A stretch of DNA of 53,041 bases. Source: a virus. The notes under the pieces were generated by a model that worked only from the letters and a program-made list of their open reading frames with translations, was not told the origin of the DNA and did no database searches. Location: IMG/VR virus record IMGVR_UViG_3300011415_000004. One strand, given 5' to 3'. Positions 7,322 to 53,041 of the stretch are shown here, one piece after another (position 1 is the stretch's first letter; each line of letters starts with the position of its first letter). Both the position numbers and the translations under genes were made by a program.

Positions 7322-9268
7322 GTGACCACGGTTCGCGAGACGCTTGAGCCGGAGACCCGCGTCGACCTGTTCGTGGCGGGCGAGGGCGGGGTGAGGGTCG
7401 AGGACGCGCACGTCAACGGCGACCCGGTCGCCCCCATCACCGTCTACACCGACGCCGAGGACGCGGACTGGGAACAGGACCTCGACCCGAACGCGGACAT
7501 CACCCCGGCGGGCACCGTCTGGTGCCGCGTCCAGTCACGGGGTGGCGAGGAGTCCGCCCAGTTCGCACTCGTGCCCGACGAGGCTGGACCGCTCAACTGG
7601 GTCGACCTCATCGTGGACGCGCCCGGTTCGATCCTCCCGTCCGAGTTCGCCGTACACGCGGCGAAACGCGGGCTCGGGGGCCACCTCCCCGACACGGCGG
7701 AGGACGGTGAGGTCCCCATCTGGGTCGAGGACCTCGAAGTCTGGGTGGCCGGTCCGGTCGAGTCGGCCGGTAGCGGGGCGACAGAGGAGTACGTGGACGA
7801 CGCGGTCGCGGCGGAGGCCGTGCTACGGCTCGGTGCCGACAACGCTCTCGACACGCGCCTCGACGTGATCGAGGCACTCGGGACGCTCGCCACCGCGGCG
7901 CAACTCGCCGCCGAGGCCGCGCTCGCCCGGAACGCCGACAACCTCCAGAGCGGGACCGTCGCGGAGGCCCGGGTCCACGCGTCGATTGCGAGGGACGGTG
8001 AGGTCACCGCGGCGATCGCTGCCGAGGCCGTCGCACGAGACGCCGCCATCGCGGCCGCTGTCGCGACGATCATGGGTGGGCTCCCACCCGGCACACTCGA
8101 CTCCTTCCTGGAGTTCGCCCAGGCGCTCAACAACGACGACGACTTCGCCGCCACGGTCGCCTCGGCGCTCGCGACGAAGCAAGACCTGGACGGCACCCTT
8201 ACCGCGCTCGCGGGCGTGGTGTCCGCCGCCGATCGGCTCCCGTACTTCTCGGGTGTGGACACGGTGGCCCTGGCGACCTTCACCACGTTCGCCCGGTCTA
8301 TCTTGGACGACGCCGACGCGTCCGCCGTCCTGTCAACCCTGGGTGTCTCGGAGTTCGTCAAGACGATCCTGGACGACCCGGACGCGGCCACACTCCGCGC
8401 CACGATCAGCGCGGTAGGCCTCACCGGGAACGAGAACGTCGGCGGGATCAAGACGTTCACGGACCAGCCATCGGCACCGTCGGTGCTGGTCACCGGCCAG
8501 ACCGGAGCGACGGAGGATCGCATCCTCTCGGGCGGCACGACCTCGGGACCACCGGCATCCGGGACGTGGGTCGCTGGTCAGTTCTTCGTAGACGGAACCG
8601 GCGCGCTGTACCTCTGCACGGTCGGGGGGGCACCGGGGTCGTGGGTCGACAAGTACGGCGAGGCGATCGCGGCCATTCCGGAGTTGGCCGCGACCCACCC
8701 GGTGGGCCTGGACCTCTCGGATCCCGACGAGGCCCGGGTCTTCCTGTATGACGTGGTGGTCCGTCGCCTGTTCAACGGCGAGTCTGGTGGAGCGAAGTCG
8801 GGCACGGGCCCCACCTCGCTCCTCGCCGCGACGTACACGATGCCCGCCGATACGTGCGGGATCGGGGACGTGCTGGAGATCGAAGCCTGGGGCACCACCG
8901 GAAACGACGCGGGCGGGAACCAGACCGACACGATCCGCATCAGGTGGGGGTCTACGAACCTGTTCACCACCGGGGCGATCACGTTCGCAGATGCGGGTCT
9001 GGCGGTTTATCCCTGGTACATGAGGACCACCATGACTCTGATGTCGACGGTTGGCGGGACGTGGGACCCGTGGGGGTCGAACGTGATCGGACCTGCCGGT
9101 GGCGGCGCAGCAACCGCCCACCGGATCGCTCCGGGCACCCAGGTCGCCTACGATCCGGCCACGATCGGGAGCGCGATCGACATCACATCCGCGCATGACA
9201 CCGCGAGCGGGTCGATGCTAACGACCTGTAGGGCGTTCACCGTCAAGCGGATCCCAGCCGGGACCTAG
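7322..9268 (+). CDS. fibre-like protein (tail-fibre-type repeats) encoded inside the head module
   Basis: 648 aa. It has an Ala-rich coiled segment, fibre-type motifs ([46 protein letters not shown]) and a Gly/Thr-rich C-terminal globular domain. Confidence 0.6.
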
Positions 9269-9277
9269 GTCGGTCCG

Positions 9278-9877
9278 ATGGTCAAGGCCTTAGCGAGGGC
9301 CACGCCGGTCCTCTACGTGGTGGCCGGACAGTCGAACGCCGTCGCGCCTGCCGGGGGTGCGACGACGTTCGCGTTCAAGACGTTCGACCCTCTCGGCATC
9401 AAGTACCGGATCCGGGCCACGGGCGGGACCCCGTGGATCAGTGTGACGTCGTCTGTCCTCGACCTCATGGAACTAGCCTCAACCCCGGATGACGTGGACG
9501 ACTACGCCACCCAAGCCCTGGAGACGCGGCTCATCCTGTGCGGAGGGTCCTCGGACGTCTGGGAGAACGACCTGGGGGAGACGGTCTACGAGAACATGGT
9601 GACCTATGCCGAGGCCCGACGGGATGCCGGGTACGCCAAGGTGATCGCGATGACGATTCCGCCGAACTCGGTCAACGCCGGACTCCAGGAGAACTTCCGG
9701 CAGGACGCGAACGCCGCGATCATCGGAGACGCCGCCGGTGCCTGGAACGCGGTGGCGAACCTGACAACCAGCGTGTTCCTTGAGGACTGGGAACAGTCCA
9801 CCTACGACGGGATCCACTGGCACGAGGAAGCGACTGACGAAGTGGCAGCCCTCCTGACCGCCGTCTTGCCGCCGTAG
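9278..9877 (+). CDS. SGNH/SASA-type esterase (putative carbohydrate O-acetylesterase)
   Basis: N-terminal VVAGQSNA (the GQSN block) and C-terminal DGIHW (the DxxH block). Confidence 0.6.
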   Translation: MVKALARATPVLYVVAGQSNAVAPAGGATTFAFKTFDPLGIKYRIRATGGTPWISVTSSVLDLMELASTPDDVDDYATQALETRLILCGGSSDVWENDLGETVYENMVTYAEARRDAGYAKVIAMTIPPNSVNAGLQENFRQDANAAIIGDAAGAWNAVANLTTSVFLEDWEQSTYDGIHWHEEATDEVAALLTAVLPP

Positions 9878-10040: not shown

Positions 10041-11333
10041 GTGCCGAACGCCGCAACGATGCACCGCCCACCGTCGACCCCGAACCTGACGACGAAGGCG
10101 TTCGAGGGAAGGGTCCTCGACCGAAAGGCCGCGCCCGGCGCGCCCGAGGACTACATCCGGGAGGCGCTGGTCGCCGTCACCGGCAACCTCGATGACGGCG
10201 GGGACGTCATCCTCCCGGGCGCGTTCGACTTCAAGCGGGCCCCGAAGATCGTCTGGAGCCACGACCTCAAGACCCTCGTCGGGAAGGTGCTCGCCCACGA
10301 GGAACTCCTCCCCGGTGACGCGCGCCTCGCGGAGATGGCTCCGGACCTCGCGGCGAAGGGTCTCGGTGCCCTCTGGTTCCGGATCGAGTTCGACCCCGAG
10401 GATCCCGAGTCGTTCAAGGCCTTCCGGAAGGTCGACTTCCACGAGGACCTCGGCTGGTCGATCGGCTACGAGACGCCGCCTGACGGCTTCAAGATCGCGG
10501 CCGACGGCCGCCGCCTGCTCTCCCACATCTACGTCTGGGAGGGTTCCCCCACCACCTTCGGTATGAACATGGAGGCTCGCACCGTGAGCGTGAAGTCCCT
10601 CATCGACCAGTACGTCAAGGACCTCGATCTGAACGAGGACCAGGCGAAGGCCCTCGCGATCGTGGCCGAGGCGATGGCCCCTCCGGAGGAGAAGACCTAC
10701 CCCGCGCTGGAGGGCTCCTACGAGGAGACCCAGGAGGCGCTTCGCTCCGCGGTGCGCGCGTGGGCCGCCCAGGTCTACGGGGACGTCGAGGCCGACAACG
10801 ACTGGTGGTGCGGCCTGGAGGGCACCTTCGAGACCGAGGTCGTCGCGTCCGTCACCGTCTACACCGGGGAGTCCGAGTCGGGCACCTGGCGGTTCCCCTA
10901 CGTCCTCGGGGAGGACGGCACGGTCGAACTCGGGGAGCCCACCGAGGTCGAGGTGCGCGCCACGGTCGCACCGGCCACCGACGCACCGGCACCCCCACCG
11001 GAGCCGGTCACGGAGACCGCCGCCCTGGAGATCGACCTCGACCCGAAGGCGATCACCGACGCCGTCGAGGAGGTCAAGAAGGGGCGGGTCCTGTCTGCCG
11101 CCAACGCCGCCGCGCTCGCGGCTGCCGCCGAGGCGATCGGGAAGGTCCTCGCCGCCGCGGCCCCGAAGGATGACGACGACGAGAAGAAGCCGAAGGAGAA
11201 GGCCGTGGTCGCCCGGGAGATCGTCCCGAAGGGCGAGGGCGGCACGGTCGAGGCCAAGGCGGTCGAGGTGCCGGAGGGCAAGGAGACGGTTACTCCGGCC
11301 GAGTGGGCGGAGATGGTCCTGGAGACCGCGTGA
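10041..11333 (+). CDS. HK97-type prohead protease fused to a scaffold-like C-terminal region
   Basis: S78/U35 pattern (GNLDDGGDVILPGAFD, KIVWSHD, GWSIGY), followed by an Ala/Glu/Lys-rich tail. Sits immediately upstream of the capsid region. ATG 10059 is an alternative start. Confidence 0.8.
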   Translation: MPNAATMHRPPSTPNLTTKAFEGRVLDRKAAPGAPEDYIREALVAVTGNLDDGGDVILPGAFDFKRAPKIVWSHDLKTLVGKVLAHEELLPGDARLAEMAPDLAAKGLGALWFRIEFDPEDPESFKAFRKVDFHEDLGWSIGYETPPDGFKIAADGRRLLSHIYVWEGSPTTFGMNMEARTVSVKSLIDQYVKDLDLNEDQAKALAIVAEAMAPPEEKTYPALEGSYEETQEALRSAVRAWAAQVYGDVEADNDWWCGLEGTFETEVVASVTVYTGESESGTWRFPYVLGEDGTVELGEPTEVEVRATVAPATDAPAPPPEPVTETAALEIDLDPKAITDAVEEVKKGRVLSAANAAALAAAAEAIGKVLAAAAPKDDDDEKKPKEKAVVAREIVPKGEGGTVEAKAVEVPEGKETVTPAEWAEMVLETA

Positions 11334-11393: not shown

Positions 11394-11666
11394 ATGACAG
11401 AGGAACTCGAAGCCCGCTTCGTCCGCACCGTCACCGCCATCAAGGTCCTCGTCCCGCGGATCCCGGGGGCCACCTTCGGCTACATCGTGACCCTGGAACG
11501 CTCGGGCGACTTCCGGGTCTGGAGCGTCTTTCTCCCCCACCCCGGCCGGGTTGGGACCCGAGAGGACCGGATCGGGTCCTTCGCCACCGGGGACGCCGCC
11601 GGGGCTCGGGCTGCCCTGCTCGAACTGGCGGCCTTCGTTCGAGGCATGGAGTACGCCGTGGCCTGA
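11394..11666 (+). CDS. hypothetical protein, leaderless, inserted between the protease and capsid genes
   Basis: ORF track. The ATG sits at the predicted transcription start of P3. Confidence 0.6.
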   Translation: MTEELEARFVRTVTAIKVLVPRIPGATFGYIVTLERSGDFRVWSVFLPHPGRVGTREDRIGSFATGDAAGARAALLELAAFVRGMEYAVA

Positions 11667-11874: not shown

Positions 11875-13212
11875 ATGACGAAGACCTCGGAGTTCAACGA
11901 CCAGAAGAAGACCCTCCTCAAGGTGATCGAGGAGAAGCAGGCCGCGATGACGGAGATCGTCACGGCCATCAAGGGGGAGGGCACCGACGAGAACCCCCTC
12001 GTGATGGAAGCGGGCATGAAGGAGACCTTCCAGGCCGCCCAGGCCGAGAAGAAGGAGGCCCAGGTCGCCCTCGACGCCATCATGGAGGTCGAGCAGGGCC
12101 AGAAGTACCTCGACCTCCTGGCGGAGCCGGAGCGGGTCGCGACGTCCGTCAAGGGCGCGATGGCCGACTTCTTCAACGTCTCCGAGGCCGAGGCCTCCAA
12201 GACGGTCGGCCAGGCCTTCTTGGAGTCCGACGTCTTCAAGGAGATGATGGAGGCCGGGGAGTTCAAGACCGCCAAGCCCTTCAAGGTCAAGGGCGACCTG
12301 GGCTCGCTCGGCCGGAAGGACATCTACTCGGACCTCCCGGGTGGGGCCCCCGGCCGGTTCGGCACCGTCCAGCGCGACGCGATGGTGCTCCGGCCCCAGC
12401 GGACCATGCGGGTCCGGGACCTGTTCCCGGTCCAGACCACGACCGCCGCGGTCATCGAGTATTTCCGCGTCACCGGCTTCACGAACGCGGCGAGCCCGGT
12501 CCCGGAGCGGAACGTCGGGAACTCCGGCTTCCAGGCGAAGCCCCAGTCCGCCCTGGAGTTCACGGGCGAGCAGGCGAGCGTCCGGACGATCGCCCACTGG
12601 GAGGCCGCCCACCGCAACGCCCTGGCCGATGAGCCCCAACTCCGGGGCCTCATCGAGAACGAACTCCTCTACGGGCTCCGCCTCGTGGAGGACGACCAGA
12701 TCCTCAACGGCACCGGCACCGGCCAGGACCTCCTCGGGATCCGGAACGTGCCGGGCATCCAGGAGTACGCCTGGAGCGAAGGCGAGGCGGGTCCCCCGGC
12801 CGACAACAAGGCCGACGCGATCCGTCGGGCCATGACCCTCGCGCTCCTGGCCTACTACGAGCCGACGGGCGTGGTCCTCCACGACGGGGACTGGGAGGAC
12901 ATCGAACTCCTCAAGGACGACAACGGTCAGTACCTCATGGCCGTCTCGATCGCCGTCGGTGGGGAGCAGCGGGTCTGGCGTTCCCCGGTGGTCACGACCC
13001 CGGCCATGGAGGAGGGCTTCGGCCTCGTCGGAGCCTTCGGGATCGGTGCGCAACTCTACGACCGGGAGGAAGGGTCGATCCGCATCGCGGAGCAGCACTC
13101 GACCTTCTTCGTGGAGAACGCCATCGTCGTCCTGGCGGAGGAGCGTCTCGCTCTCGCAACGAAGCGCCCCGAGGCCTTCGTTGAGGTCGAGTTCGACGCC
13201 GTGCCCACCTAG
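11875..13212 (+). CDS. major capsid protein (HK97 fold) with N-terminal delta-like domain
   Basis: In frame with ORF 11551..13212, with GGAGG 10 nt upstream of ATG 11875. Length and sequence pattern are typical of Phage_capsid proteins, with a coiled N-terminal ~100 aa. Confidence 0.88.
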   Translation: MTKTSEFNDQKKTLLKVIEEKQAAMTEIVTAIKGEGTDENPLVMEAGMKETFQAAQAEKKEAQVALDAIMEVEQGQKYLDLLAEPERVATSVKGAMADFFNVSEAEASKTVGQAFLESDVFKEMMEAGEFKTAKPFKVKGDLGSLGRKDIYSDLPGGAPGRFGTVQRDAMVLRPQRTMRVRDLFPVQTTTAAVIEYFRVTGFTNAASPVPERNVGNSGFQAKPQSALEFTGEQASVRTIAHWEAAHRNALADEPQLRGLIENELLYGLRLVEDDQILNGTGTGQDLLGIRNVPGIQEYAWSEGEAGPPADNKADAIRRAMTLALLAYYEPTGVVLHDGDWEDIELLKDDNGQYLMAVSIAVGGEQRVWRSPVVTTPAMEEGFGLVGAFGIGAQLYDREEGSIRIAEQHSTFFVENAIVVLAEERLALATKRPEAFVEVEFDAVPT

Positions 13213-13247: not shown

Positions 13248-13273
13248 GGGGGGAGTCCTTCGGGGCTCCCCCC
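13248..13273 (+). terminator. GC-rich hairpin with TTCG loop after the capsid gene
   Basis: GGGGGGAGTCC-TTCG-GGGCTCCCCCC with one bulge. Confidence 0.55.
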
Positions 13274-13298: not shown

Positions 13299-13757
13299 AT
13301 GACCTTCCTCGGTGACGACGACGACCGTTGCGTAGTGTGCGGGGCCGAAGGGGGTAACTGTGGCCCAGACGGAGATCACCCCGGCTACGTGGTGTTCTCC
13401 GAGTGGGGAGGCGACCCCCCGACCCGGTCGTCCCGAGCGAAGGAGACAGCCATGGCGAACGCCGTAGTCGCAACCGAGCGGATCCACGAGCGGGTCCCGA
13501 TCCCGAAGTCCACCCGGACGAGGAAGGTCCTCCGGTTCGCCCCGGGCCAGGTCGTGCCGGAGGGGGACGTCAAGCGCCTCAACGTGAAGGCCGACGGGAC
13601 CCAGTCCTCGGTCCCTACCGCGGGCGAGGGGTCGACTCCGGCCGTGCCTCTCGCCGCCAAGAAGGCCGCCAAGCGGAAGGCCCCCGCGAAGCGGAAGACG
13701 ACCGCCCGCAAGGCCCCGGCCAAGAAGAAGGCACCCGCCAAGAAGCGGGCCCGGTAG
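13299..13757 (+). CDS. lysine/alanine-rich basic protein (H1-like AKKA/PAKK tail)
   Basis: ORF track. An alternative start at ATG 13452 has a strong AAGGAGA box. The C-terminus reads AAKKAAKRKAPAKRKTTARKAPAKKKAPAKKRAR. Confidence 0.55.
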   Translation: MTFLGDDDDRCVVCGAEGGNCGPDGDHPGYVVFSEWGGDPPTRSSRAKETAMANAVVATERIHERVPIPKSTRTRKVLRFAPGQVVPEGDVKRLNVKADGTQSSVPTAGEGSTPAVPLAAKKAAKRKAPAKRKTTARKAPAKKKAPAKKRAR

Positions 13758-13800
13758 CGACCGGCGCGGCCTTCCCCGCCCGCCTGGAGCAGAAGCACCG

Positions 13801-14418
13801 ATGACCACTCACCCCGAGGAGACCGCGATGGAGCAACCCCCCACCGAGCACGTCTGGCTCAACCTCGGTTGCGGAACCCACCGGGCTCCGGCCCCGTGGT
13901 GGAACGTCGACACCGTCGTCCGGAAGGGGCCCGACGTCGCGGCGATCGACACCGTCGACCCGGACCAGGTGATCGACCCGAACAGGCCCTTGCCCTTCGC
14001 GGCCGGATCGTGCGACCGGGTCTTCCTCTCCCACGTCCTCGAACACGTCCCGTGGGAGGCGGTGCCCGGCCTCCTCATCGACGTCCGGCGGATCGCCGTC
14101 GCGGAGGTCCTCATCGTCGGCCCGGATTGCTACCGGACGATCGAGGCCTACAAGGCGGGCCTTGAGCCGTGGTCGATCGTCCAGTCCGTGCTAGAGCACA
14201 AGGACTATCCCGATGACATGATCGAGTGGCCGGGCGCGCCGCATCACTGGAACTGTCACGAGGCCCGGGTGATCGAGGCGCTCAACCGAACCGGGTGGCA
14301 CGCGGTTCCGGTGCTCGATCACGGGATCCTCCGGGACTGGCCGACGGTGGCCTTCAACCCCCGGTGGCAGTTCGCCGTCATGGCCCGCTCGGACGGACGG
14401 GCGGTGCTGGACCGATGA
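13801..14418 (+). CDS. class I SAM-dependent methyltransferase
   Basis: Motif I (VWLNLGCGTH) and DRVFLSHVLEHV, typical of Methyltransf_11/23 proteins. Confidence 0.7.
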   Translation: MTTHPEETAMEQPPTEHVWLNLGCGTHRAPAPWWNVDTVVRKGPDVAAIDTVDPDQVIDPNRPLPFAAGSCDRVFLSHVLEHVPWEAVPGLLIDVRRIAVAEVLIVGPDCYRTIEAYKAGLEPWSIVQSVLEHKDYPDDMIEWPGAPHHWNCHEARVIEALNRTGWHAVPVLDHGILRDWPTVAFNPRWQFAVMARSDGRAVLDR

Positions 14419-15230
14419 GGCTGGAGGACGTGAGCGTCCCGCCGCCCGAGGAGAGTGCGGCGGACTGGAACGAAGCGGGGGTGGTGATCCTCCCGGGCTT
14501 CTTCCCGGATGCCCTCCTCGACGCGTACGCGGGGGAGTGGGAGGAGGCCAACGGCTACCACGGGCTACAGGGCGGGGAGACGGCCTGGATCATCTCCGCC
14601 GACCGGGTCGGAGGCTGGGACGACTGCACCCCGTACATGAGGCATGAGGCGCTCCGTCAACTCCTCACCTACGCGCCCCTCGCCCGGGTCCTGGAGGGCC
14701 TCCTCATCGGTGAGCCCGCCGGGGTCCACCTCAACCTGACCGGCTGGGTGACGACCGAGCGCGACTGGCACCAGGACTCCTACCTCAACGAGCCCGAGGT
14801 GGGCGACCGCTACGCCGCGATCTGGATCGCGCTCGGGGACATCCACCCGGACTCCGGCCCCTTCCAGTACGTGCCGGGCTCGCACCGTTGGCCCCAGGTC
14901 ACGCGCGAACTCATCGGCCACCACGTCAACCTCGCGGACCCGTCCTGGCCCAAGCACTCCGAGGACATCCTCTCGCCGGTCTTCGAGGCGGAGATCCGCG
15001 AGCGCGGGGCCGAGGTAGTCACCCACCTCCCGAACCGGGGGGACCTGCTGATCTGGCACGGGCGACTCCTCCATCGGGGATCGAAGGCGAACGTCCCGGG
15101 CGCGTACCGCCCGGCGCTGATCGCCCACTACTCGGGGATCCACCATCGCTCCTCGATGCCGCCCGCGATCCAGACCCTCTCCAACGGCGGGTGGTTCTTC
15201 CCCATCGGCTCGCTCACCCCGGTCCGCTGA
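14415..15230 (+). CDS. PhyH-family Fe(II)/2-oxoglutarate dioxygenase
   Basis: In frame with ORF 14226..15230, with an ATGA overlap. HxD motif in DWHQDSY and a distal His in LIWHGRLLHRG. Confidence 0.65.
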   Translation: MRLEDVSVPPPEESAADWNEAGVVILPGFFPDALLDAYAGEWEEANGYHGLQGGETAWIISADRVGGWDDCTPYMRHEALRQLLTYAPLARVLEGLLIGEPAGVHLNLTGWVTTERDWHQDSYLNEPEVGDRYAAIWIALGDIHPDSGPFQYVPGSHRWPQVTRELIGHHVNLADPSWPKHSEDILSPVFEAEIRERGAEVVTHLPNRGDLLIWHGRLLHRGSKANVPGAYRPALIAHYSGIHHRSSMPPAIQTLSNGGWFFPIGSLTPVR

Positions 15231-15232
15231 CC

Positions 15233-16360
15233 GTGAAGATCGGTGTCGCGACGAACGACTGGAGCCGGTCGTACCTGGACGGCCACGGGCGGCCGACCTA
15301 CGGCGGGGCCGGGTGGTATCGGCTCGGGCTCCCGGCTCGCCACCTCCGGGCCCAGGGCCTCGACGTGGTCGAGGGGACGCTGGCCTGGGCGAACGATGCG
15401 AAGCGGTTCGGGATCCGCGAGTGGCCCGGCCATGGTGACGACCCGGAGAACCCGATGATCCACTGGGACGTCGACCTCGTCGTCCTTCAACGGTGGATGT
15501 TCGCCTCGGTCGCGTTCGAGACGCCGACGGCGCGGCGCTCCGGGCAGGTCGTGGTCCAGGACGTGGACGACCACTTCTGGGCCCTCGACCCGGCGAACCG
15601 CGCCCAGCGGGCGACGGACCCCCGGCTCAACAAGGTCGAGAACCGGGACCACTACCTGGCGGGGATCAAGGCCGCCTCGGCGGTGACGGTGTCGACCCCC
15701 TACCTGGCGAGCGAACTCCGCCGGGCCGGGGTGCGCGTCCCCATCCACGTCCTCCCCAACCACCTCGACGTCGAGGCCTTCGCTCAGGTCCGCCAGGCGA
15801 GGCCCTGGCGGGCGTCTCCCATCGTCGGATGGGTCGGGGCGACCCAGTACCGCTCCGGGGACGTCGAGACGCTACGGGGCTTCCTGGGCCCGTTCCTCAA
15901 CCGGCACGACCTGACCGCCTACCACGGGGGCCACGTCGAGGGGGCCGCCACGTTCGCCGCCCAGGCCCGGCTCCAGCCGGAGCGGGTTAGGCACGCCCCC
16001 CTCGCGCCGATCGAGACGTACCCCTTCCTGTTCCGTGGCCTCGACGTCGGCCTGGTCCCCCTCCGGAACGTGCCCTTCAACCAGGCGAAGTCGGCCATCA
16101 AGGGCCTGGAGTACGCGGCCGCCGGGGTGCCCTTCGTGGCGGCCGACCTCCCCGAGTACGTGAGGCTCCACGCGGACCGCGGCATCGGCCGCCTGGCGCG
16201 GCGGACCCGGGACTGGACCCGCAACCTGGAGGCCCTCCTCGACCCGATCGTTCGGGCGGAGGAGGCGGCCAAGAACCTCGCCGCCGTCGAGGCCCTTGAC
16301 ATCCGGCGGGGGGTCCACCAGTGGCGGGACCTCTACCTCGAACTCCTCGCAACCGCTTGA
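15233..16360 (+). CDS. GT-B fold glycosyltransferase (GT4-like)
   Basis: In frame with ORF 14888..16360, GTG start. The C-terminal KGLEYAAAGVPFVAADLPEY resembles the GT4 donor-binding motif. Confidence 0.65.
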   Translation: MKIGVATNDWSRSYLDGHGRPTYGGAGWYRLGLPARHLRAQGLDVVEGTLAWANDAKRFGIREWPGHGDDPENPMIHWDVDLVVLQRWMFASVAFETPTARRSGQVVVQDVDDHFWALDPANRAQRATDPRLNKVENRDHYLAGIKAASAVTVSTPYLASELRRAGVRVPIHVLPNHLDVEAFAQVRQARPWRASPIVGWVGATQYRSGDVETLRGFLGPFLNRHDLTAYHGGHVEGAATFAAQARLQPERVRHAPLAPIETYPFLFRGLDVGLVPLRNVPFNQAKSAIKGLEYAAAGVPFVAADLPEYVRLHADRGIGRLARRTRDWTRNLEALLDPIVRAEEAAKNLAAVEALDIRRGVHQWRDLYLELLATA

Positions 16361-16572
16361 CCTCAACCGGGGGTGTCGCTTAGGGCCAGGGGCCTACACG
16401 GCTCCCAGTCCCCCGAACCGGACGGCCTTCGACTCCCTCCGGGGATCGACAAGCCGGGACGTCGGAAGAAGTCGAGACCCCGGCCATTACTGGGCCAGCC
16501 GGGGAGCCGCCTCCCGGAGGGTCCGTCCATCCTCCAGCCGGGAGGAGCAGCAGAGTGCGAGAGGACGGGCGT

Positions 16573-16594
16573 GGGGGCTCCTTCGGGGGCCCCC
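16573..16594 (+). terminator. GC-rich hairpin with TTCG loop
   Basis: GGGGGCTCC-TTCG-GGGGCCCCC with one mismatch, at the end of a 250-nt noncoding stretch. Confidence 0.4.
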
Positions 16595-16601
16595 GGTCGC
16601 G

Positions 16602-16607
16602 TACCCT
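16602..16607 (+). promoter_or_regulatory. TACCCT box (class-2 element)
   Basis: Fits TANNNT, 7 nt after the hairpin and 6 nt before ATG 16614. Confidence 0.3.
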
Positions 16608-16613
16608 GGCACC

Positions 16614-17222
16614 ATGCCGATCATCACTCCCGTCGACCTCGGGAAGTACCTGGCCCGACCGATCGCCGCGGGGGCCCAGGCGAACGCCGCGACGGAGATC
16701 ATCGACGGCCTCGAAGGGGACCTCGCCGCCTACTTGAAGCGCCCGATCGCCCCGGCCGAGTTCGAGGACGAGGAGGTCACCGTCTCGGGCGGGGTGATCT
16801 ACCCGCGCCACACGCCGATCCTGTCGGTGGCGGGCTTCTCCTACGGGGAGACGGAGATCACCGATGACCAGTACGTCCTCCGCTCCTACGGCCTGGTCGA
16901 CATCTGGCCGGGCTTCGTGCCGGACCCGATCATCGCCGTCCCGCCCCCGCTCCTCCTCTCCTACACGGCGGGGCTCCCCGGTGATGACCCGACCACGGAC
17001 TTCGGGCGGAAGGCGCGGGGGGTCCTCCTTCGTGCCGCGGCGCGCGACTTCAACCAGGTGGTCCGCGAGGACCTGGCGGGGGTGGCCCGAGCCGTGATCG
17101 AGGGGACGGACCTCGGCTTCCACGGCGGAGTCCGGGCCGGGGCCGGTGGCCTCACCGAGACGGAACTAGAGGGCTTCAAGCGATGGAAGCGCCGGACCGT
17201 CCGGGTCGCGGTGGCCCGATGA
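16614..17222 (+). CDS. head-tail connector (gp6-like adaptor)
   Basis: In frame with ORF 16296..17222. The N-terminus MPIITPVDLGKYLARP is typical of this family, and it is the first gene of the connector block. Confidence 0.6.
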   Translation: MPIITPVDLGKYLARPIAAGAQANAATEIIDGLEGDLAAYLKRPIAPAEFEDEEVTVSGGVIYPRHTPILSVAGFSYGETEITDDQYVLRSYGLVDIWPGFVPDPIIAVPPPLLLSYTAGLPGDDPTTDFGRKARGVLLRAAARDFNQVVREDLAGVARAVIEGTDLGFHGGVRAGAGGLTETELEGFKRWKRRTVRVAVAR

Positions 17223-18487: not shown

Positions 18488-19057
18488 ATGGCCGCTGCAC
18501 ACGAGACGATCCTGTTCGACGTCCACGACTTCAAGGTGTACCCGATGATCTCCGACACCGGGGCCTCCCCGGTGTACGGGGCCGCGGTGGACGTCTACGG
18601 CATCGCGGAGGTTGGCCTCGACCCGAACCTCATCACCGCCGAACTCAAGGGCGATGGAGTGGTCATCGCGAAGAAGGGCAAACTGGACCGGCTGAACTCC
18701 TCGGCCACCTACGGCCGCCTGTCCGGTGACGTGCTGGACGTCATCATCGGCTCGGTGACGACCGAGCGGACCGCCGATCACACGAGGACGGAGATCGAAG
18801 CGGGCGTGTCGCTCCCGTCCTTCGGCGCGGCCTTCGTGATCGAGGACGCGGACAACGGCATCGAGGACCTCGTGGTCGTCATGTTCAAGTGCCAGATCAC
18901 GGGCGGCACCCTCCTCGGCCAGACGACCGACAACTTCGGCCAGCCGTCCTTCGAGTTCGAGGCGATCGGCCTCCAGGCCTCGGCCTTCCTCAACAAGATG
19001 GCCTATGTCGACTTCCACAACGTGGCGACGGGTGTCCCCGCCTCGTTGCCGATCTAG
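18488..19057 (+). CDS. major tail (tube) protein
   Basis: 189 aa between the connector genes and the chaperone pair, flanked by its own upstream box and a strong terminator. Confidence 0.7.
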   Translation: MAAAHETILFDVHDFKVYPMISDTGASPVYGAAVDVYGIAEVGLDPNLITAELKGDGVVIAKKGKLDRLNSSATYGRLSGDVLDVIIGSVTTERTADHTRTEIEAGVSLPSFGAAFVIEDADNGIEDLVVVMFKCQITGGTLLGQTTDNFGQPSFEFEAIGLQASAFLNKMAYVDFHNVATGVPASLPI

Positions 19058-33449: not shown

Positions 33450-34081
33450 CCGACACCCCGAACCCCACCCCACCCGAGGACGCCATCTGGCCGACACCAG
33501 AGGGCAACCTCCTCGATCCGCTCGCCACGACCGACGGCATCGCGAAGGCGAGGGAGGCGCTTCGCTCGCTGGAGGGGTGGACGATGGACCTCATCGAGTC
33601 CGCTCCCGTGAAGGCCGACCCGATCCATCCGACCTACGTCCACGACCTCGCCTACCTGGTCGACAACCTGGAGGCGATCATCGACAAGGCGAAGGCCATC
33701 CAGGCCGAGGCCGGGGAGGCCCTGGCGAAGGCCGTCCCGTTCGGCACGCCACGGATCGCCTTCCCCGGGCTCCGGCCTCTCACCCCCCGTTGGGGCGGCA
33801 CCCGCAAGGAGTGGGCCATGGACATCCTCGGGGACCTCGTGAAGGCTCGGGTCCTCGTAGCCCCGGCGAAGGTCGACACCGAAACTGGGGAGATCGTCTC
33901 GCCCGCCTATGAGCGGACGCCCGAGGAGGTCCTCGACTCCGCCTTCTCCGTGGTCTCCCTCACCGGATCGAACCTCAAGGTCACCGGGCTACGCGCCCTG
34001 GGCCTCGATCCGGACGACTACTGCAAGAAGACCCCCGCGCCGCCGACCGTCCAGGTGACGAAGGATGCGCTGGACCGATGA
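33446..34081 (+). CDS. hypothetical protein
   Basis: In frame with ORF 32990..34081. ATGA overlap with the upstream gene. Confidence 0.6.
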   Translation: MTDTPNPTPPEDAIWPTPEGNLLDPLATTDGIAKAREALRSLEGWTMDLIESAPVKADPIHPTYVHDLAYLVDNLEAIIDKAKAIQAEAGEALAKAVPFGTPRIAFPGLRPLTPRWGGTRKEWAMDILGDLVKARVLVAPAKVDTETGEIVSPAYERTPEEVLDSAFSVVSLTGSNLKVTGLRALGLDPDDYCKKTPAPPTVQVTKDALDR

Positions 34082-34222
34082 TCGTCGCCAAGACAGGCTT
34101 CTACGTGTCCGCCCAGGTGTGGATCGCCCGCCGCCGTGCTCGCCCCGGATACCGCGACGACGGCCGCGTGCGTCGTGGGAGCGATCTTCAACGCCCTCGC
34201 CTGGCTGGTCACCGATGACTGA
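34078..34222 (+). CDS. small membrane protein; coding frame appears to change near 34125-34136
   Basis: The frame-1 ORF 34078..34218 has ATGA overlaps at both ends. However, the second half is GC3-rich and hydrophobic only in frame 2 (VLAPDTATTAACVVGAIFNALAWLVTDD*, GTG 34136). Confidence 0.35.
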
Positions 34223-34826
34223 GGTCAAGGCCTTCGACACCTACAAGACGAACGCCGATCTGATCGTGGCCGCGGTCCGTCTCGGCTACCTCCGGAAGGA
34301 GTGGACGACCCTCGACCCAACCTGTGGTGAGGGCACCTTCTGGAACCTCTGGAGGCCGGACCGGCTCATCGCCTCGGACCTCGACAGTAGGAAGTCTCCT
34401 ACCGGGACGTCGGTCGACGTCCGACGCCTCCCGCATATGGGGCGCGTCTTCGACGCCACGGTCTTCGACGGGCCCTACAAGTTCAACGGCAGGCCCGCCG
34501 CTGAGACAGATGAGAGGTACGGGGTCCATCTCCCGACGAGATGGCAGGACCGGATGGACCTGCTCATCGAGGGCACGAAGGAGTGCGCGCGCGTCACGAA
34601 GACGATGCTCCTCATAAAGTGCATGGACCAGGTGTGCTCGGGGAAGATCCGGTGGCAGAGGCGGGTCCTCACCGAGGTCGCGGAGCACGAGGGCTTCGGG
34701 CTCCTGGACGAACTCCACTACGAGTCGTTCCGGCCCCAGCCGTCGGGCCGCCGCCAGGTCACGGCACGCCGGAACTTCTCGACGCTCCTCATCCTCCAGC
34801 GCGGACACTCGTGGCGACACGCGTAG
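34215..34826 (+). CDS. DNA methyltransferase (N6-adenine/N4-cytosine type)
   Basis: DPTCGEGTFW (motif I) followed by VFDGPYKF (a DPPY-like motif IV). Confidence 0.7.
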   Translation: MTEVKAFDTYKTNADLIVAAVRLGYLRKEWTTLDPTCGEGTFWNLWRPDRLIASDLDSRKSPTGTSVDVRRLPHMGRVFDATVFDGPYKFNGRPAAETDERYGVHLPTRWQDRMDLLIEGTKECARVTKTMLLIKCMDQVCSGKIRWQRRVLTEVAEHEGFGLLDELHYESFRPQPSGRRQVTARRNFSTLLILQRGHSWRHA

Positions 34827-41480: not shown

Positions 41481-42500
41481 GTGAGGATCAAGTACGAGGA
41501 CTGGAAGCCTGGGGCCGATGCGATCCAGGTGATCGCCCAAGCCGACGCCATCTGTCGCGACTACCGAGCCCAGGGCTACGACCTGACTCTCCGCCAGTTG
41601 TATTACCAGTTCGTCGCGAGGGCCCTCATCCCGAACACCGACCGCTCCTACAAGCGCCTCGGGTCGATCGTCAACAAGGCCCGGATGGCCGGGCTCCTCG
41701 ACTGGGACTACATCGTGGACCGGACCCGTAACATCCGGAGCGTAGGTCACTTCAAGGATCCGGCCGCCATCATCGACGTCGCCACCCGAGCGTTCGCACT
41801 CGACAAGTGGGCGACCCAGTCCACCCGGGTTGAGGTCTGGGTGGAGAAGGAGGCTCTGGCCGGGGTCGTCGGTCAGGTAGCGGATCGTCTCGACGTCGCC
41901 TGGTTCTCATGCCGCGGGTACGTCTCCCAGTCCGAACTCTGGGGGGCGGCCCAGCGCCTCATGGGCTACGTCGAGAGTGGGCAGAGGGTGGTCGTCCTCC
42001 ATCTGGGCGACCATGACCCCAGCGGGATCGACATGACCCGCGACATCACCGACCGCCTCCGCACCTTCTCGACCCAGGACTACCTCAACGTCCACGCCGA
42101 CGAGTGGACCGACGACGGGAACACGACCGTCGGGGAGATCCTCCGGGAGATGCGCGTCAAGGTCGGCCTCTCGGCCGTCGGCCACGAGAACGCGATCGAG
42201 GTCAACCGGATCGCCCTCAACTTCGACCAGGTCGAGGAGTACCAGCCTCCGCCCAACCCGGCGAAGATGACCGACTCACGCGTGGAGGGTTACATCGCCG
42301 CCCATGGATACGAGTCCTGGGAACTCGACGCCCTCGACCCGGCCACTCTGGACGCGCTGATCGAGTCGCACGTCCTGGAACTCCGCGACGAGGACGCGTG
42401 GGGGGAGATCGTCGCGATCGAAGACCGCGGCCGGTCGCTCCTCACCGAGTGTTCGGACCGCTGGGAGGACGTCGTCACCCTCCTCGAAGGAGGCGTGTGA
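41481..42500 (+). CDS. Topo VI subunit A / Spo11-like protein (5Y-CAP + Toprim only, 'mini-A'-like)
   Basis: 339 aa. LRQLYYQFVARALIPNT matches the winged-helix region with the tyrosine pair. VEVWVEKEAL...SCRGYVSQS...VVLHLGDHDPSGIDM matches the Toprim E...DxDPxG pattern. Confidence 0.6.
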   Translation: MRIKYEDWKPGADAIQVIAQADAICRDYRAQGYDLTLRQLYYQFVARALIPNTDRSYKRLGSIVNKARMAGLLDWDYIVDRTRNIRSVGHFKDPAAIIDVATRAFALDKWATQSTRVEVWVEKEALAGVVGQVADRLDVAWFSCRGYVSQSELWGAAQRLMGYVESGQRVVVLHLGDHDPSGIDMTRDITDRLRTFSTQDYLNVHADEWTDDGNTTVGEILREMRVKVGLSAVGHENAIEVNRIALNFDQVEEYQPPPNPAKMTDSRVEGYIAAHGYESWELDALDPATLDALIESHVLELRDEDAWGEIVAIEDRGRSLLTECSDRWEDVVTLLEGGV

Positions 42501-52080: not shown

Positions 52081-53041
52081 GTGACCACCGTCGCGCCGCC
52101 TCTCTCCTTCGACTCGTTCCAGGTCCGCAACCTCCCGACAGAGGAGTGGGCGATGGCCGAGGAACTCGTCCTCTCGGGCGACTGGGACGAGGCCCTCAAG
52201 GAACTCACCGAAGACGAGGCGCGGTCCCTGGAGTGGGACTGGGCCTTCTGGGGTCGGCCCGACCAGCGCGAACCAGACGAGTTCGTGCGGGGCGAGGCGA
52301 AGGTCTGGTTCGTGCGCGCCGGGCGCGGCTACGGCAAGACACGCACCGGGGCCGAGACGGTCCGCTCACGGGTTCACCGTGGACTGTGCGGGCGGATCGC
52401 GATCGTCGCCCCCACCGCTGGGGACGCCCGGGACATCATGGTCGAAGGCGAGTCAGGGCTCCTCGCCGTACACCCCCCGTGGTTCCGTCCGAAGTACGAG
52501 CCCTCGAAGCGCCGGATCACCTGGCCCAACGGAGCCCAGGCCACCGTCTTCTCCGCCGACGAGCCGGACCGTCTCCGTGGCCCCCAGTACGACTTCGTCT
52601 GGGGCGATGAGCCCGCCTCGTGGAGGTTCGGGGAGGAGGCCTGGGACAACGTCGAACTGGGCCTCCGCCTCGGTGACCATCCCCAGGCGATGCTCACCGG
52701 GACGCCCCGCCCTCTACCGTGGTTGAAGGCCATCTGGAACGACCCGGAGACGATCGTCACCTCGGGCTCCTCGTTCCGCAACATGGCGAACCTGGCCGAG
52801 TCGTTCATTCGACGGATCCTCAAGAAGTACGAGGGCACCCGCCTCGGCCTCCAGGAACTCCACGCCATGGTCCTCGAAGACGTCGAGGGCGCGCTCTGGA
52901 CCCGGGCGATGATCGACGCCGACCGGATCCGGTGGGAGTACGACGACCAGAAGAACTTGATCCTCCCGCTCCCCGACCAGGACGTGGTCGTCGTCGGGGT
53001 CGACCCGGCGGGCACCTCGGGCCCGGACTCGGACGAGACGG
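52081..53041 (+). CDS. terminase large subunit, N-terminal ATPase part (runs off the window and continues at nt 3)
   Basis: Translated by hand from GTG 52081. WFVRAGRGYGKT (Walker A), YDFVWGDE (Walker B-like) and LTGTP. There is no stop before the window end. Confidence 0.9.
   Translation, partial: MTTVAPPLSFDSFQVRNLPTEEWAMAEELVLSGDWDEALKELTEDEARSLEWDWAFWGRPDQREPDEFVRGEAKVWFVRAGRGYGKTRTGAETVRSRVHRGLCGRIAIVAPTAGDARDIMVEGESGLLAVHPPWFRPKYEPSKRRITWPNGAQATVFSADEPDRLRGPQYDFVWGDEPASWRFGEEAWDNVELGLRLGDHPQAMLTGTPRPLPWLKAIWNDPETIVTSGSSFRNMANLAESFIRRILKKYEGTRLGLQELHAMVLEDVEGALWTRAMIDADRIRWEYDDQKNLILPLPDQDVVVVGVDPAGTSGPDSDET
52919..53041. repeat. terminal direct repeat, copy 2 (identical to 1-123)
   Basis: Read directly. 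Confidence 0.95.

Follow-up and report, generated by a model that had tools for sequence, protein, structure and literature searches.

A four-gene island at positions 13299-16360 (+ strand) of the IMG/VR virus record IMGVR_UViG_3300011415_000004 encodes a class I S-adenosylmethionine (SAM)-dependent methyltransferase (MT), a PhyH-type Fe(II)/2-oxoglutarate (2OG) dioxygenase and a glycosyltransferase (GT) behind a small zinc-knuckle protein, here called gene A, and lies between the major capsid gene and a putative head-tail connector gene (Table 1). The record is a 69% GC, 53-kb metagenomic phage contig (53,041 nucleotides; hereafter the window, that is, the whole stretch analysed) from an uncultured, high-GC, siphovirus-like soil phage with, probably, an actinobacterial host. 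PhyH and its specific MT form a conserved, mobile pair in phages; the pair recurs with one GT family and, in the window, replaces the tailoring gene of a GT island. These three features are new, whereas actinophage GT and MT cassettes were already known and the PhyH family had been deposited under an automatic name in uncultured phages. We tentatively favour, at somewhat short of an even chance, the reading that the island is a late glycan-decoration cassette in which a hydroxylase and an O-methyltransferase form a tailoring pair and a virion protein is the probable target; the order of reactions, the glycan product and the target are predictions. All four open reading frames (ORFs) that an earlier sequence-only reading of this DNA had placed directly after the capsid gene are present on the + strand, and its three enzyme assignments hold (PF05721 for PhyH, PHROG 7162 for the GT, and structure models with Foldseek for the MT and PhyH). 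That reading had also allowed that the enzymes might be inactive remnants; the catalytic residues of PhyH and motif I of the MT are intact.

PhyH is a nearly full-length match to PF05721 (66.1 bits, cut-off 22; E = 7.3e-18; profile positions 2-211 of 213). H119, D121, H220 and R232 are invariant in 34 homologues, and this HxD...H...R site aligns with its counterpart in human PhyH (2a1x; HQD, the distal His and the Arg); because the Asp of the HxD motif is present, the enzyme is of the hydroxylase rather than the halogenase type. An AlphaFold2 model (pLDDT 93.8, pTM 0.91) has the double-stranded beta-helix fold and matches proline hydroxylase H11, SnoN, PAHX and EctD in Foldseek (probability 1.0; E = 3e-12 to 1e-10). 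Its nearest solved structures overall lie at E = 1e-9 to 3e-12 with TM scores of 0.5-0.6, and a sequence-profile search against solved structures gave E = 1e-7 to 1e-2. Structural neighbours include both sugar-tailoring enzymes (SnoN, SnoK, HygX, AviO1) and free amino-acid hydroxylases (H11, GriE, EctD), so the substrate may be a sugar or an amino-acid side chain. The suggestion that a PhyH-type hydroxylase is unusual in such a gene set is borne out by tblastn, which found no match to it in 50,697 cultured phage records. Metagenomic homologues (E <= 1e-5) number more than 1,000, including at least 120 with 54-69% identity, and 20 IMG/VR viral contigs (GC 45-71%) carry the gene. The 'phytanoyl-CoA dioxygenase' of an uncultured member of the Caudovirales (UniProt A0A6J5RSU0) is a true member of the family (44% identity, TM 0.89). 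Cellular homologues (38-45% identical, in metagenome-assembled genomes or chromosomes) occur in heterogeneous metabolic contexts, too mixed to transfer any function.

The MT has a class I SAM methyltransferase fold in its AlphaFold2 model (pLDDT 91) and a conserved motif I, LNLGCG, with N12, G14, C15, G16 and D28 invariant across 47 homologues. Its score against Pfam Methyltransf_11 (20.7 bits) is just below the cut-off of 21.2; many of 70 homologues carry PF08241 in precomputed assignments, and fused relatives score 23-45 bits. Foldseek returned 196 matches at E <= 1e-3, and the 50 listed are almost all SAM methyltransferases with TM scores of about 0.5, together with the methyltransferase-fold hydroxylase RdmB. 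The nearest structures are small-molecule class I enzymes such as DhpI, RebM and CysG, and no DNA methyltransferase occurs among these 50; likewise, Pfam, NCBIfam and PHROG scans matched the MT to no DNA methyltransferase family, NCBIfam giving only a sub-threshold match to MftM. The same tblastn search of cultured phages found two MT matches, both in records of Streptomyces phage KimJongPhill, the only cultured phage with this MT family. A profile search of 1.84 billion representative proteins recovered 19,259 relatives, and two proteins among the best 150 of these (P0297 and P0281; L and P numbers are our labels for loci and proteins) join the MT domain to GT2 domains. A further conserved N-terminal domain without a Pfam match, located some 200-400 aa ahead of the MT domain and bearing the motifs HAKGVTR and WHYSGSxFWFR, is fused to the window MT family in P0196, P0213, P0216, P0218, P0232, P0245, P0267, P0274 and P0286; some of these fusions have an extra Cys-rich N-terminus, and P0206 and P0228 carry a more distant version.

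Profile methods and close homologues place the GT as a GT-B, GT4-like enzyme. It matches PHROG 7162 'glycosyltransferase' over residues 22-370 (4.2e-32) and contains a conserved FNxxKSxxKxxE motif. A family profile built from 13 members matches the GT4 enzymes MshA, BshA, PimB' and PimA (best E = 3.6e-4), and a single-sequence search of the PDB gave no match. Pfam matches are weak (E = 0.007) and below threshold (Glyco_trans_1_4, 17 bits against 27; Glyco_trans_1_2, 13.6 against 25), and the best NCBIfam match, to the teichuronic acid GT TuaH, is also weak and sub-threshold (1.5e-5). Among homologues, the GT of L137 (65% identical) carries Glyco_trans_4_4 and that of L052 carries Glyco_trans_1_2; annotated GTs of phages KimJongPhill and Atuin are 32-34% identical to the window GT. 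Weak homologues of the C-terminal half also occur in phi92-like coliphages (L056, Escherichia phage EmilieFrey, 44552-47728), in a block of four GT-like genes adjoining primase/helicase and DNA polymerase genes.

Linkage of PhyH and MT extends far beyond the window. PhyH at least 50% identical to that of the window was found in 31 distinct loci, 28 of them assessable (the contig ends at PhyH in 3), and a Methyltransf_11-type methyltransferase adjoins it, in either order, in 23/28. The window's own MT family accounts for 20 of these 23 (hidden Markov model (HMM) E = 1e-41 to 1e-77) and another Methyltransf_11 lineage for 3, and the loci span GC contents of 45-71%. Equal longest-contig sizes for 9 further PhyH and MT homologues suggest more shared contigs. 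Among 99 neighbour proteins in viral loci, Methyltransf_11 was the commonest Pfam family (13), followed by class II ribonucleotide reductase (RNR; 5), TauD dioxygenases (4) and then glycosyltransferases; a Trp halogenase, a carbamoyltransferase and a further 2OG oxygenase each occurred once. In aquatic phages another oxygenase, a dioxygenase of the TauD/CsiD family, recurs beside PhyH-MT (L005:6235-7053, L014, L015 and L131).

In 9 loci a member of the window GT family is found no more than 5 kb from PhyH, in varying gene order (Table 1). Some cassettes are larger or differently composed: L053 also encodes an NDP-sugar epimerase/dehydratase, together with a P-loop kinase and a TOD1/MUCI70-like GT, and in L009-L011 the window GT family gives way to a GT2-TPR protein and a second MT. 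Placement in the genome also varies, from after the capsid gene (window, L005) or before it (L052) to before the terminase gene (KimJongPhill), between tail genes and lysis genes (L053, L054, L025), or after tail genes with no lysis gene nearby (L055).

Comparison with the closest relatives shows how the pair entered the island. The two nearest lineages (L137-L139 and L057) have the order capsid-A-small ORF-MT-GT-connector without PhyH. Identities to the window are 88% (capsid), 67% (A), 65% (GT) and 59% (connector) in L137-L139, and 82% (capsid), 57% (GT) and about 50% (A) in L057; the MT of L057 is a 28%-identical member of the window family, and that of L137 belongs to another Methyltransf_11 lineage. 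Since these relatives keep A, MT and GT without PhyH, PhyH is best seen as an exchangeable add-on tied to the MT and not to the GT. On sequence comparison, the simplest reading is that A and GT form a stable island frame and that the tailoring segment between them can be exchanged, being filled here by the mobile MT-PhyH pair. A survey of 80 viral contigs with capsids 53-82% identical to that of the window (L057-L136) found a class II RNR in the capsid-connector slot of 59/80, the window GT family in 3/80, a TauD dioxygenase in 1/80 and PhyH in 0/80; in Brevibacterium phage Cantare the slot holds a single hypothetical gene. The slot is thus a lineage-specific cargo hot-spot. In L107, a 446-aa protein (8434-9774), perhaps a beta-helix to judge from its sequence, and a 310-aa collagen-like protein with G-X-Y repeats (13548-14480) lie on either side of the A-GT pair; both are possible fibre or substrate candidates in that phage.

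Gene A travels with several kinds of cargo. Its homologues P0340-P0342 (153-157 aa) span 90-100% of the first 105 residues of the query, and the family has an invariant CxVCGxxxGxC motif (C11, C14, G15, G19, C21) encoded upstream of an alternative start at 13452 (101 aa); homologue length and motif position together support the long, 152-aa reading. Pipeline calls on the source contig start the gene at 13452, and its 5' part has a third-codon-position GC (GC3) of only 0.76. The last 40 residues of the protein are rich in Lys, Ala, Pro and Arg, in keeping with the sequence-only description of a Lys/Ala-rich basic protein, and D99, G100, T101, Q102 and P106 are conserved immediately before this tail. 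The tail itself is confined to the soil lineage, being missing in L057, L107 and all RNR-linked members. No significant match to gene A was found in Pfam, PHROG or PADLOC, and none among cultured phages; against NCBIfam its basic tail gave a weak, sub-threshold match to Rv3852_fam (E = 0.011). Homology to Cantare gp15 was ruled out for lack of similarity, and small ORFs adjoining PhyH elsewhere are unrelated to gene A and to one another. Members of the family lie directly upstream, on the same strand, of the class II RNR gene in 37 loci and directly upstream of the GT in L106 and L107, with the two genes overlapping. This association with RNR genes shows that the family is not tied to the enzyme set; it seems to accompany unrelated cargo, in either orientation, as a kind of 'leader'.

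Several known systems resemble parts of the island. Cluster O actinophages such as Corndog, and also Che8 and Myrna, carry an O-methyltransferase with tandem glycosyltransferases (Freeman et al. 2023, as cited in PMC11600133 and PMC13313380), and such sets modify capsid and tail-tube proteins (PMC11600133, citing Freeman 2023). The link between GT and O-methyltransferase sets and actinophage virion glycosylation that the sequence-only reading drew is found in both articles. Like these sets, the window has a GT and an MT in one 2.5-kb block, here between the capsid and connector genes, and by analogy the cassette could plausibly glycosylate capsid or tail proteins in the cytoplasm with methylated sugars. 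Unlike them, it has one GT instead of several, its GT and MT have no detectable homology to the enzymes of Che8, Corndog and Myrna at E <= 1e-5, and it includes an MT-coupled PhyH dioxygenase. No PhyH is known to have been reported in glycosylation sets of this kind. A nearer parallel is KimJongPhill (Zukovirus), in which gp4-gp6 are a UDP-glucose dehydrogenase, a methyltransferase and a glycosyltransferase in a row. Its MT belongs to the window family (29% identity; family HMM E = 9e-37), its GT is 32% identical, and the two genes are adjacent at the edge of the structural module, as in the window. KimJongPhill lacks PhyH, however, having a sugar dehydrogenase as the oxidising partner; its cassette lies before the terminase gene and not after the capsid gene.

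For bacterial PhyH-methyltransferase fusions, whose gene neighbourhoods contain sulfotransferases as well as beta-hydroxylases, protein hydroxylation followed by methylation or sulfation has been predicted (Iyer, Abhiman, de Souza & Aravind 2010, PMC2938197). The phage loci share the PhyH-MT linkage, and related loci contain TauD/CAS-like hydroxylases (L005, L014, L015) and, solely on the P0002 contig, a sulfotransferase. However, phage PhyH and MT are separate adjacent genes, and their recurrent third partner is a GT and not a sulfotransferase. Collagen-like G-X-Y repeats, and with them a collagen-like substrate, were not found in the window, and L054 has only a 6-repeat run; tail-collar domains were not searched for. 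Natural-product PhyH enzymes (SnoN, SnoK, HygX, AviO1, EvdO2) and the hydroxylases H11, GriE and EctD share the fold and the Fe/2OG site but are only 15-20% identical to the window PhyH, have substrate-binding residues that are not transferable, and include none of viral origin. The PhyH-domain core proteins of cyanomyoviruses are distant fold relatives (TM about 0.4); the role proposed for them concerns 2OG pools and not glycans (Sullivan 2010, PMC3037559).

In the proposed scheme, the GT would transfer a sugar from a nucleotide-sugar donor to an acceptor, most likely a virion protein; PhyH would use Fe(II), 2OG and O2 to hydroxylate or otherwise oxidize a C-H position on the sugar or on the acceptor residue; and the MT would methylate a hydroxyl, possibly the one made by PhyH. 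A hydroxylase with an O-methyltransferase is a classic tailoring pair that makes a hydroxyl and then caps it. MT and PhyH would act as a translationally coupled tailoring unit, swapped in relative to the closest phages, in which only a methyltransferase stands between A and GT, and the swap would diversify the decoration. A virion protein is the most plausible target because these cassettes ride in late operons and because there is actinophage precedent. A glycan-related role is strengthened by the UDP-glucose dehydrogenase adjoining the MT and GT of KimJongPhill, by the NDP-sugar enzymes in related cassettes and by the MT-GT2 fusions. A broader extension is more doubtful: PhyH-MT could be a widespread phage module acting on a virion protein or its glycan, where it would convert a position to a hydroxyl and then a methoxy group or provide a hydroxyl for glycosylation. 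If so, phages would have hydroxylation-dependent protein decoration analogous to the hydroxylysine or hydroxyproline glycosylation of eukaryotes and giant viruses, and would exchange the module as a cassette that diversifies the virion surface.

Several observations weigh against the virion-decoration scheme. The PhyH-MT pair often occurs with no GT nearby, for example adjoining TauD and RNR genes, and so may act on something other than a glycan. The island's place beside the capsid gene does little to support a capsid substrate, given the RNR that most relatives hold in the same slot, and the other cassette positions are typical insertion sites of accessory ('moron') genes. No Mycobacterium phage was found among the 66 GT or 2 MT tblastn matches in cultured phages, so the window GT and MT are not detectably homologous to the virion-glycosylation enzymes of mycobacteriophages. 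The weak GT homologues of phi92-like coliphages adjoin DNA replication genes, and none of the best 150 MT relatives is fused to PhyH, or indeed to the window GT family.

Action on the host cell envelope is a less probable reading, in which the cassette modifies a glycopolymer (teichoic- or teichuronic-acid-like polymers, arabinogalactan or a surface glycan) and masks or alters a receptor, leading to superinfection exclusion or sparing progeny adsorption to cell debris. The TuaH match of the GT points this way, as do its PDB relatives PimB', PimA, MshA and BshA, which are cell-envelope or thiol-pathway GT4 enzymes, and so does the use of accessory-gene sites. Beside PhyH-MT-GT in L006 there is an ORF with a TIGTFDxxHxGH motif, cytidylyltransferase-like by eye only; the L055 phage encodes a serine integrase and is therefore temperate; and an Acidimicrobiia chromosome (L032) carries the PhyH-MT pair. 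In the window, by contrast, the island lies inside a late structural operon and has the codon usage of structural genes, the three enzymes look soluble and of ordinary composition, and no integrase or lysogeny gene turned up in the partly annotated sequence, for which no dedicated search was made. Actinophage precedent exists for virion glycosylation, whereas none is known for a late-operon cassette acting on the envelope. Somewhat less likely still, the MT-PhyH pair, with or without the GT, may serve an auxiliary metabolic function by making or altering a small metabolite, such as an amino acid, osmolyte or cofactor-like molecule that is hydroxylated and O-methylated. The closest structures of PhyH are free-substrate enzymes (H11, GriE, EctD, MysH), and those of the MT are the small-molecule methyltransferases DhpI, RebM and CysG. 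Aquatic-phage neighbours include RNR, TauD-family dioxygenases, the Trp halogenase and the carbamoyltransferase, many PhyH-MT loci have no GT, and cyanophage PhyH-domain proteins have been proposed to act via 2OG metabolism (PMC3037559). However, the pair recurs with GTs and NDP-sugar enzymes, its MT domain is found fused to GT2, and in the window lineage it fills the exact slot of a GT-partnering methyltransferase.

Gene A as the dedicated substrate, with its DGTQ..VPT segment or Lys-rich tail hydroxylated, methylated and glycosylated, is improbable. The idea draws on analogy with the methyl-lysines of mycobacterial HBHA and HupB tails and with hydroxylysine glycosylation in collagen or by mimivirus L230, on the A-MT-GT synteny of L057 and L137-L139 and the A-GT gene overlap in L106/L107, and on the conserved residues before the basic tail. 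Against it, the family's position upstream of RNR genes means that it is not GT-specific, no A homologue accompanies PhyH-MT(-GT) in L006, L027, L033 or L052-L055, and the tail is missing from so many members. The sequence-only reading had offered phage DNA as an alternative target, and on paper a methyltransferase, a 2OG dioxygenase and a glycosyltransferase do mirror the phage TET/C5-MTase/GT systems, in which a DNA base is methylated, oxidized and then glycosylated. Pyle 2024 is cited on this subject in PMC12619734. The location of the coliphage GT homologues beside primase and polymerase genes also fits. The window enzymes fall outside those systems, however: PhyH belongs to neither the TET/JBP nor the AlkB family, and every one of its 50 best structural matches is a PhyH-type small-molecule enzyme; the MT, of 196 aa, resembles small-molecule methyltransferases and was matched to no DNA methyltransferase in the searches above. 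Together with the lack of a hydroxymethylase among 10 window genes scanned and the retention of MT and GT without PhyH in the closest relatives, this makes DNA hypermodification a very remote prospect. PADLOC found no defence-system model matching the island.

Virion glycosylation in actinophages has been recognized only recently and affects the immune recognition of therapeutic phages. As the island shows, one position in such cassettes, the 'tailoring' position, varies and is occupied here by an oxygenase-methyltransferase pair, and the comparison exposes both the capsid-connector cargo hot-spot and the small zinc-knuckle 'leader' gene that moves with unrelated cargo. Working out what PhyH-MT does would give a function to a common gene pair of uncultured phages and could reveal an oxidative modification of glycans or proteins; as a compact Fe/2OG hydroxylase with an O-methyltransferase, such pairs are also candidate biocatalysts.

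Table 1 Position of the island and its flanks in the window, with gene A family members and PhyH-MT-GT cassettes of related loci
Feature	Contig or locus	Position	Strand	Remarks
Protease/scaffold	window	10041-11333		Upstream of capsid
Small ORF	window	11394-11666		Between protease/scaffold and capsid
Major capsid protein gene	window	11875-13212	+	Upstream flank; Pfam Phage_capsid 1.6e-40; PHROG 10
First hairpin	window	13248-13273 (pattern 13251-13270)	+	GC-rich, UUCG loop; after capsid gene; terminator-like, without U-tract
Gene A	window	13299-13757	+	152 aa; small Zn-knuckle protein, Lys/Ala-rich tail
MT	window	13828-14418	+	Class I SAM-dependent, 196 aa; alternative start 13801
PhyH	window	14415-15230	+	Fe(II)/2OG dioxygenase, 271 aa
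GT	window	15233-16360	+	GT-B, GT4-like, 375 aa; GTG start
Non-coding spacer	window	16361-16613	+	254 nt; GC3 raised in no frame; contains second UUCG hairpin
Second hairpin	window	core about 16572-16597 (pattern 16574-16593)		Inside spacer
Putative head-tail connector/adaptor gene	window	16614-17222	+	Downstream flank; 202 aa; named by position and weak match
Gene A family member	L064	11152-11529	-	Example; family range L005-L129
Gene A family member	L021	4986-5303	+	Example
Gene A family member	L107	11808-12089	+	Example
Cassette GT-PhyH-MT	L033			
Cassette PhyH-MT-GT	L054			Between tail genes and amidase
Cassette GT-PhyH-x-MT	L055			
Cassette GT-x-PhyH-MT	L052			Just upstream of different capsid gene
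GT within 5 kb of PhyH	L006, L027, L031, L053, window			

The island is not an assembly chimaera, since the same island, with PhyH 100% identical, occurs on contigs of three samples; genes of the window are also on ENA contig k141_135225 (52.9 kb), with fragments in two further samples. Megablast found no nucleotide relative among cultured phages for the island or the first 25 kb of the window. GC3 is 0.90-0.94 in the MT, PhyH, GT and 3' two-thirds of gene A, and codon usage correlates with that of the phage structural genes (r = 0.91-0.98), so the four ORFs are real genes. The MT start at 13828 is preceded by a GAGGAG Shine-Dalgarno sequence. The overlapping stops and starts proposed to chain the genes are confined to one junction: MT and PhyH overlap by ATGA at 14415-14418, whereas 2 nt separate PhyH from GT and 43-70 nt separate A from MT.

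The capsid protein is 53% identical to that of Cantare and about 51% identical to those of Gordonia phages, a resemblance that makes an actinobacterial host likely; its closest metagenomic relatives are those of L137 and L057. A terminator had been proposed directly after the capsid gene, and a very stable hairpin does follow its stop codon (-37.5 kcal/mol, z = -3.46; 0/200 shuffles fold equally well), although it has no U-tract and a simple terminator scan did not call it. The second hairpin is equally marked (-40.2 kcal/mol, z = -4.28), and the pattern GGGnnnCCTTCGGGnnnCCC has only two sites in the window, exactly framing the island. An insertion scar was rejected as the explanation, since the flanks do not align outside the stem-loop and GC hairpins can arise independently as terminators; the hairpins are kept as terminator-like boundaries and may be either independent terminators or a duplicated boundary. 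The name 'connector' for the gene beyond them suits its position and a weak match of its product to the Cantare head-to-tail complex protein gp16 (24% identity), although the product matched neither Pfam nor PHROG; the gene is 52-59% identical to the same-position gene in L057 and L137 and is followed by an HK97-gp10-like gene and then by head-completion and tail genes; a putative tail-tube protein of 189 aa is encoded at 18488-19057.

Elsewhere in the window, the gene for a tail-fibre-like protein (7571-9268; PHROG 2631, 6.6e-24) precedes one (9278-9877) whose 199-aa product has a GQSN motif and weakly matches GDSL/SGNH hydrolases; the position of this fibre gene and possible glycan esterase gene, upstream of the protease and capsid genes, is odd. 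The replication region includes a weakly DNA-methyltransferase-like gene (34065-34826; PHROG 24333, 7.7e-9; no Pfam match) and a strong match to PHROG 6247 'DNA topoisomerase' (41481-42500; 4.6e-105). A gene starts near the left end (1-632) and an ORF runs off the right end (52081-53040), which suggests that the contig is a circularly permuted, near-complete genome.

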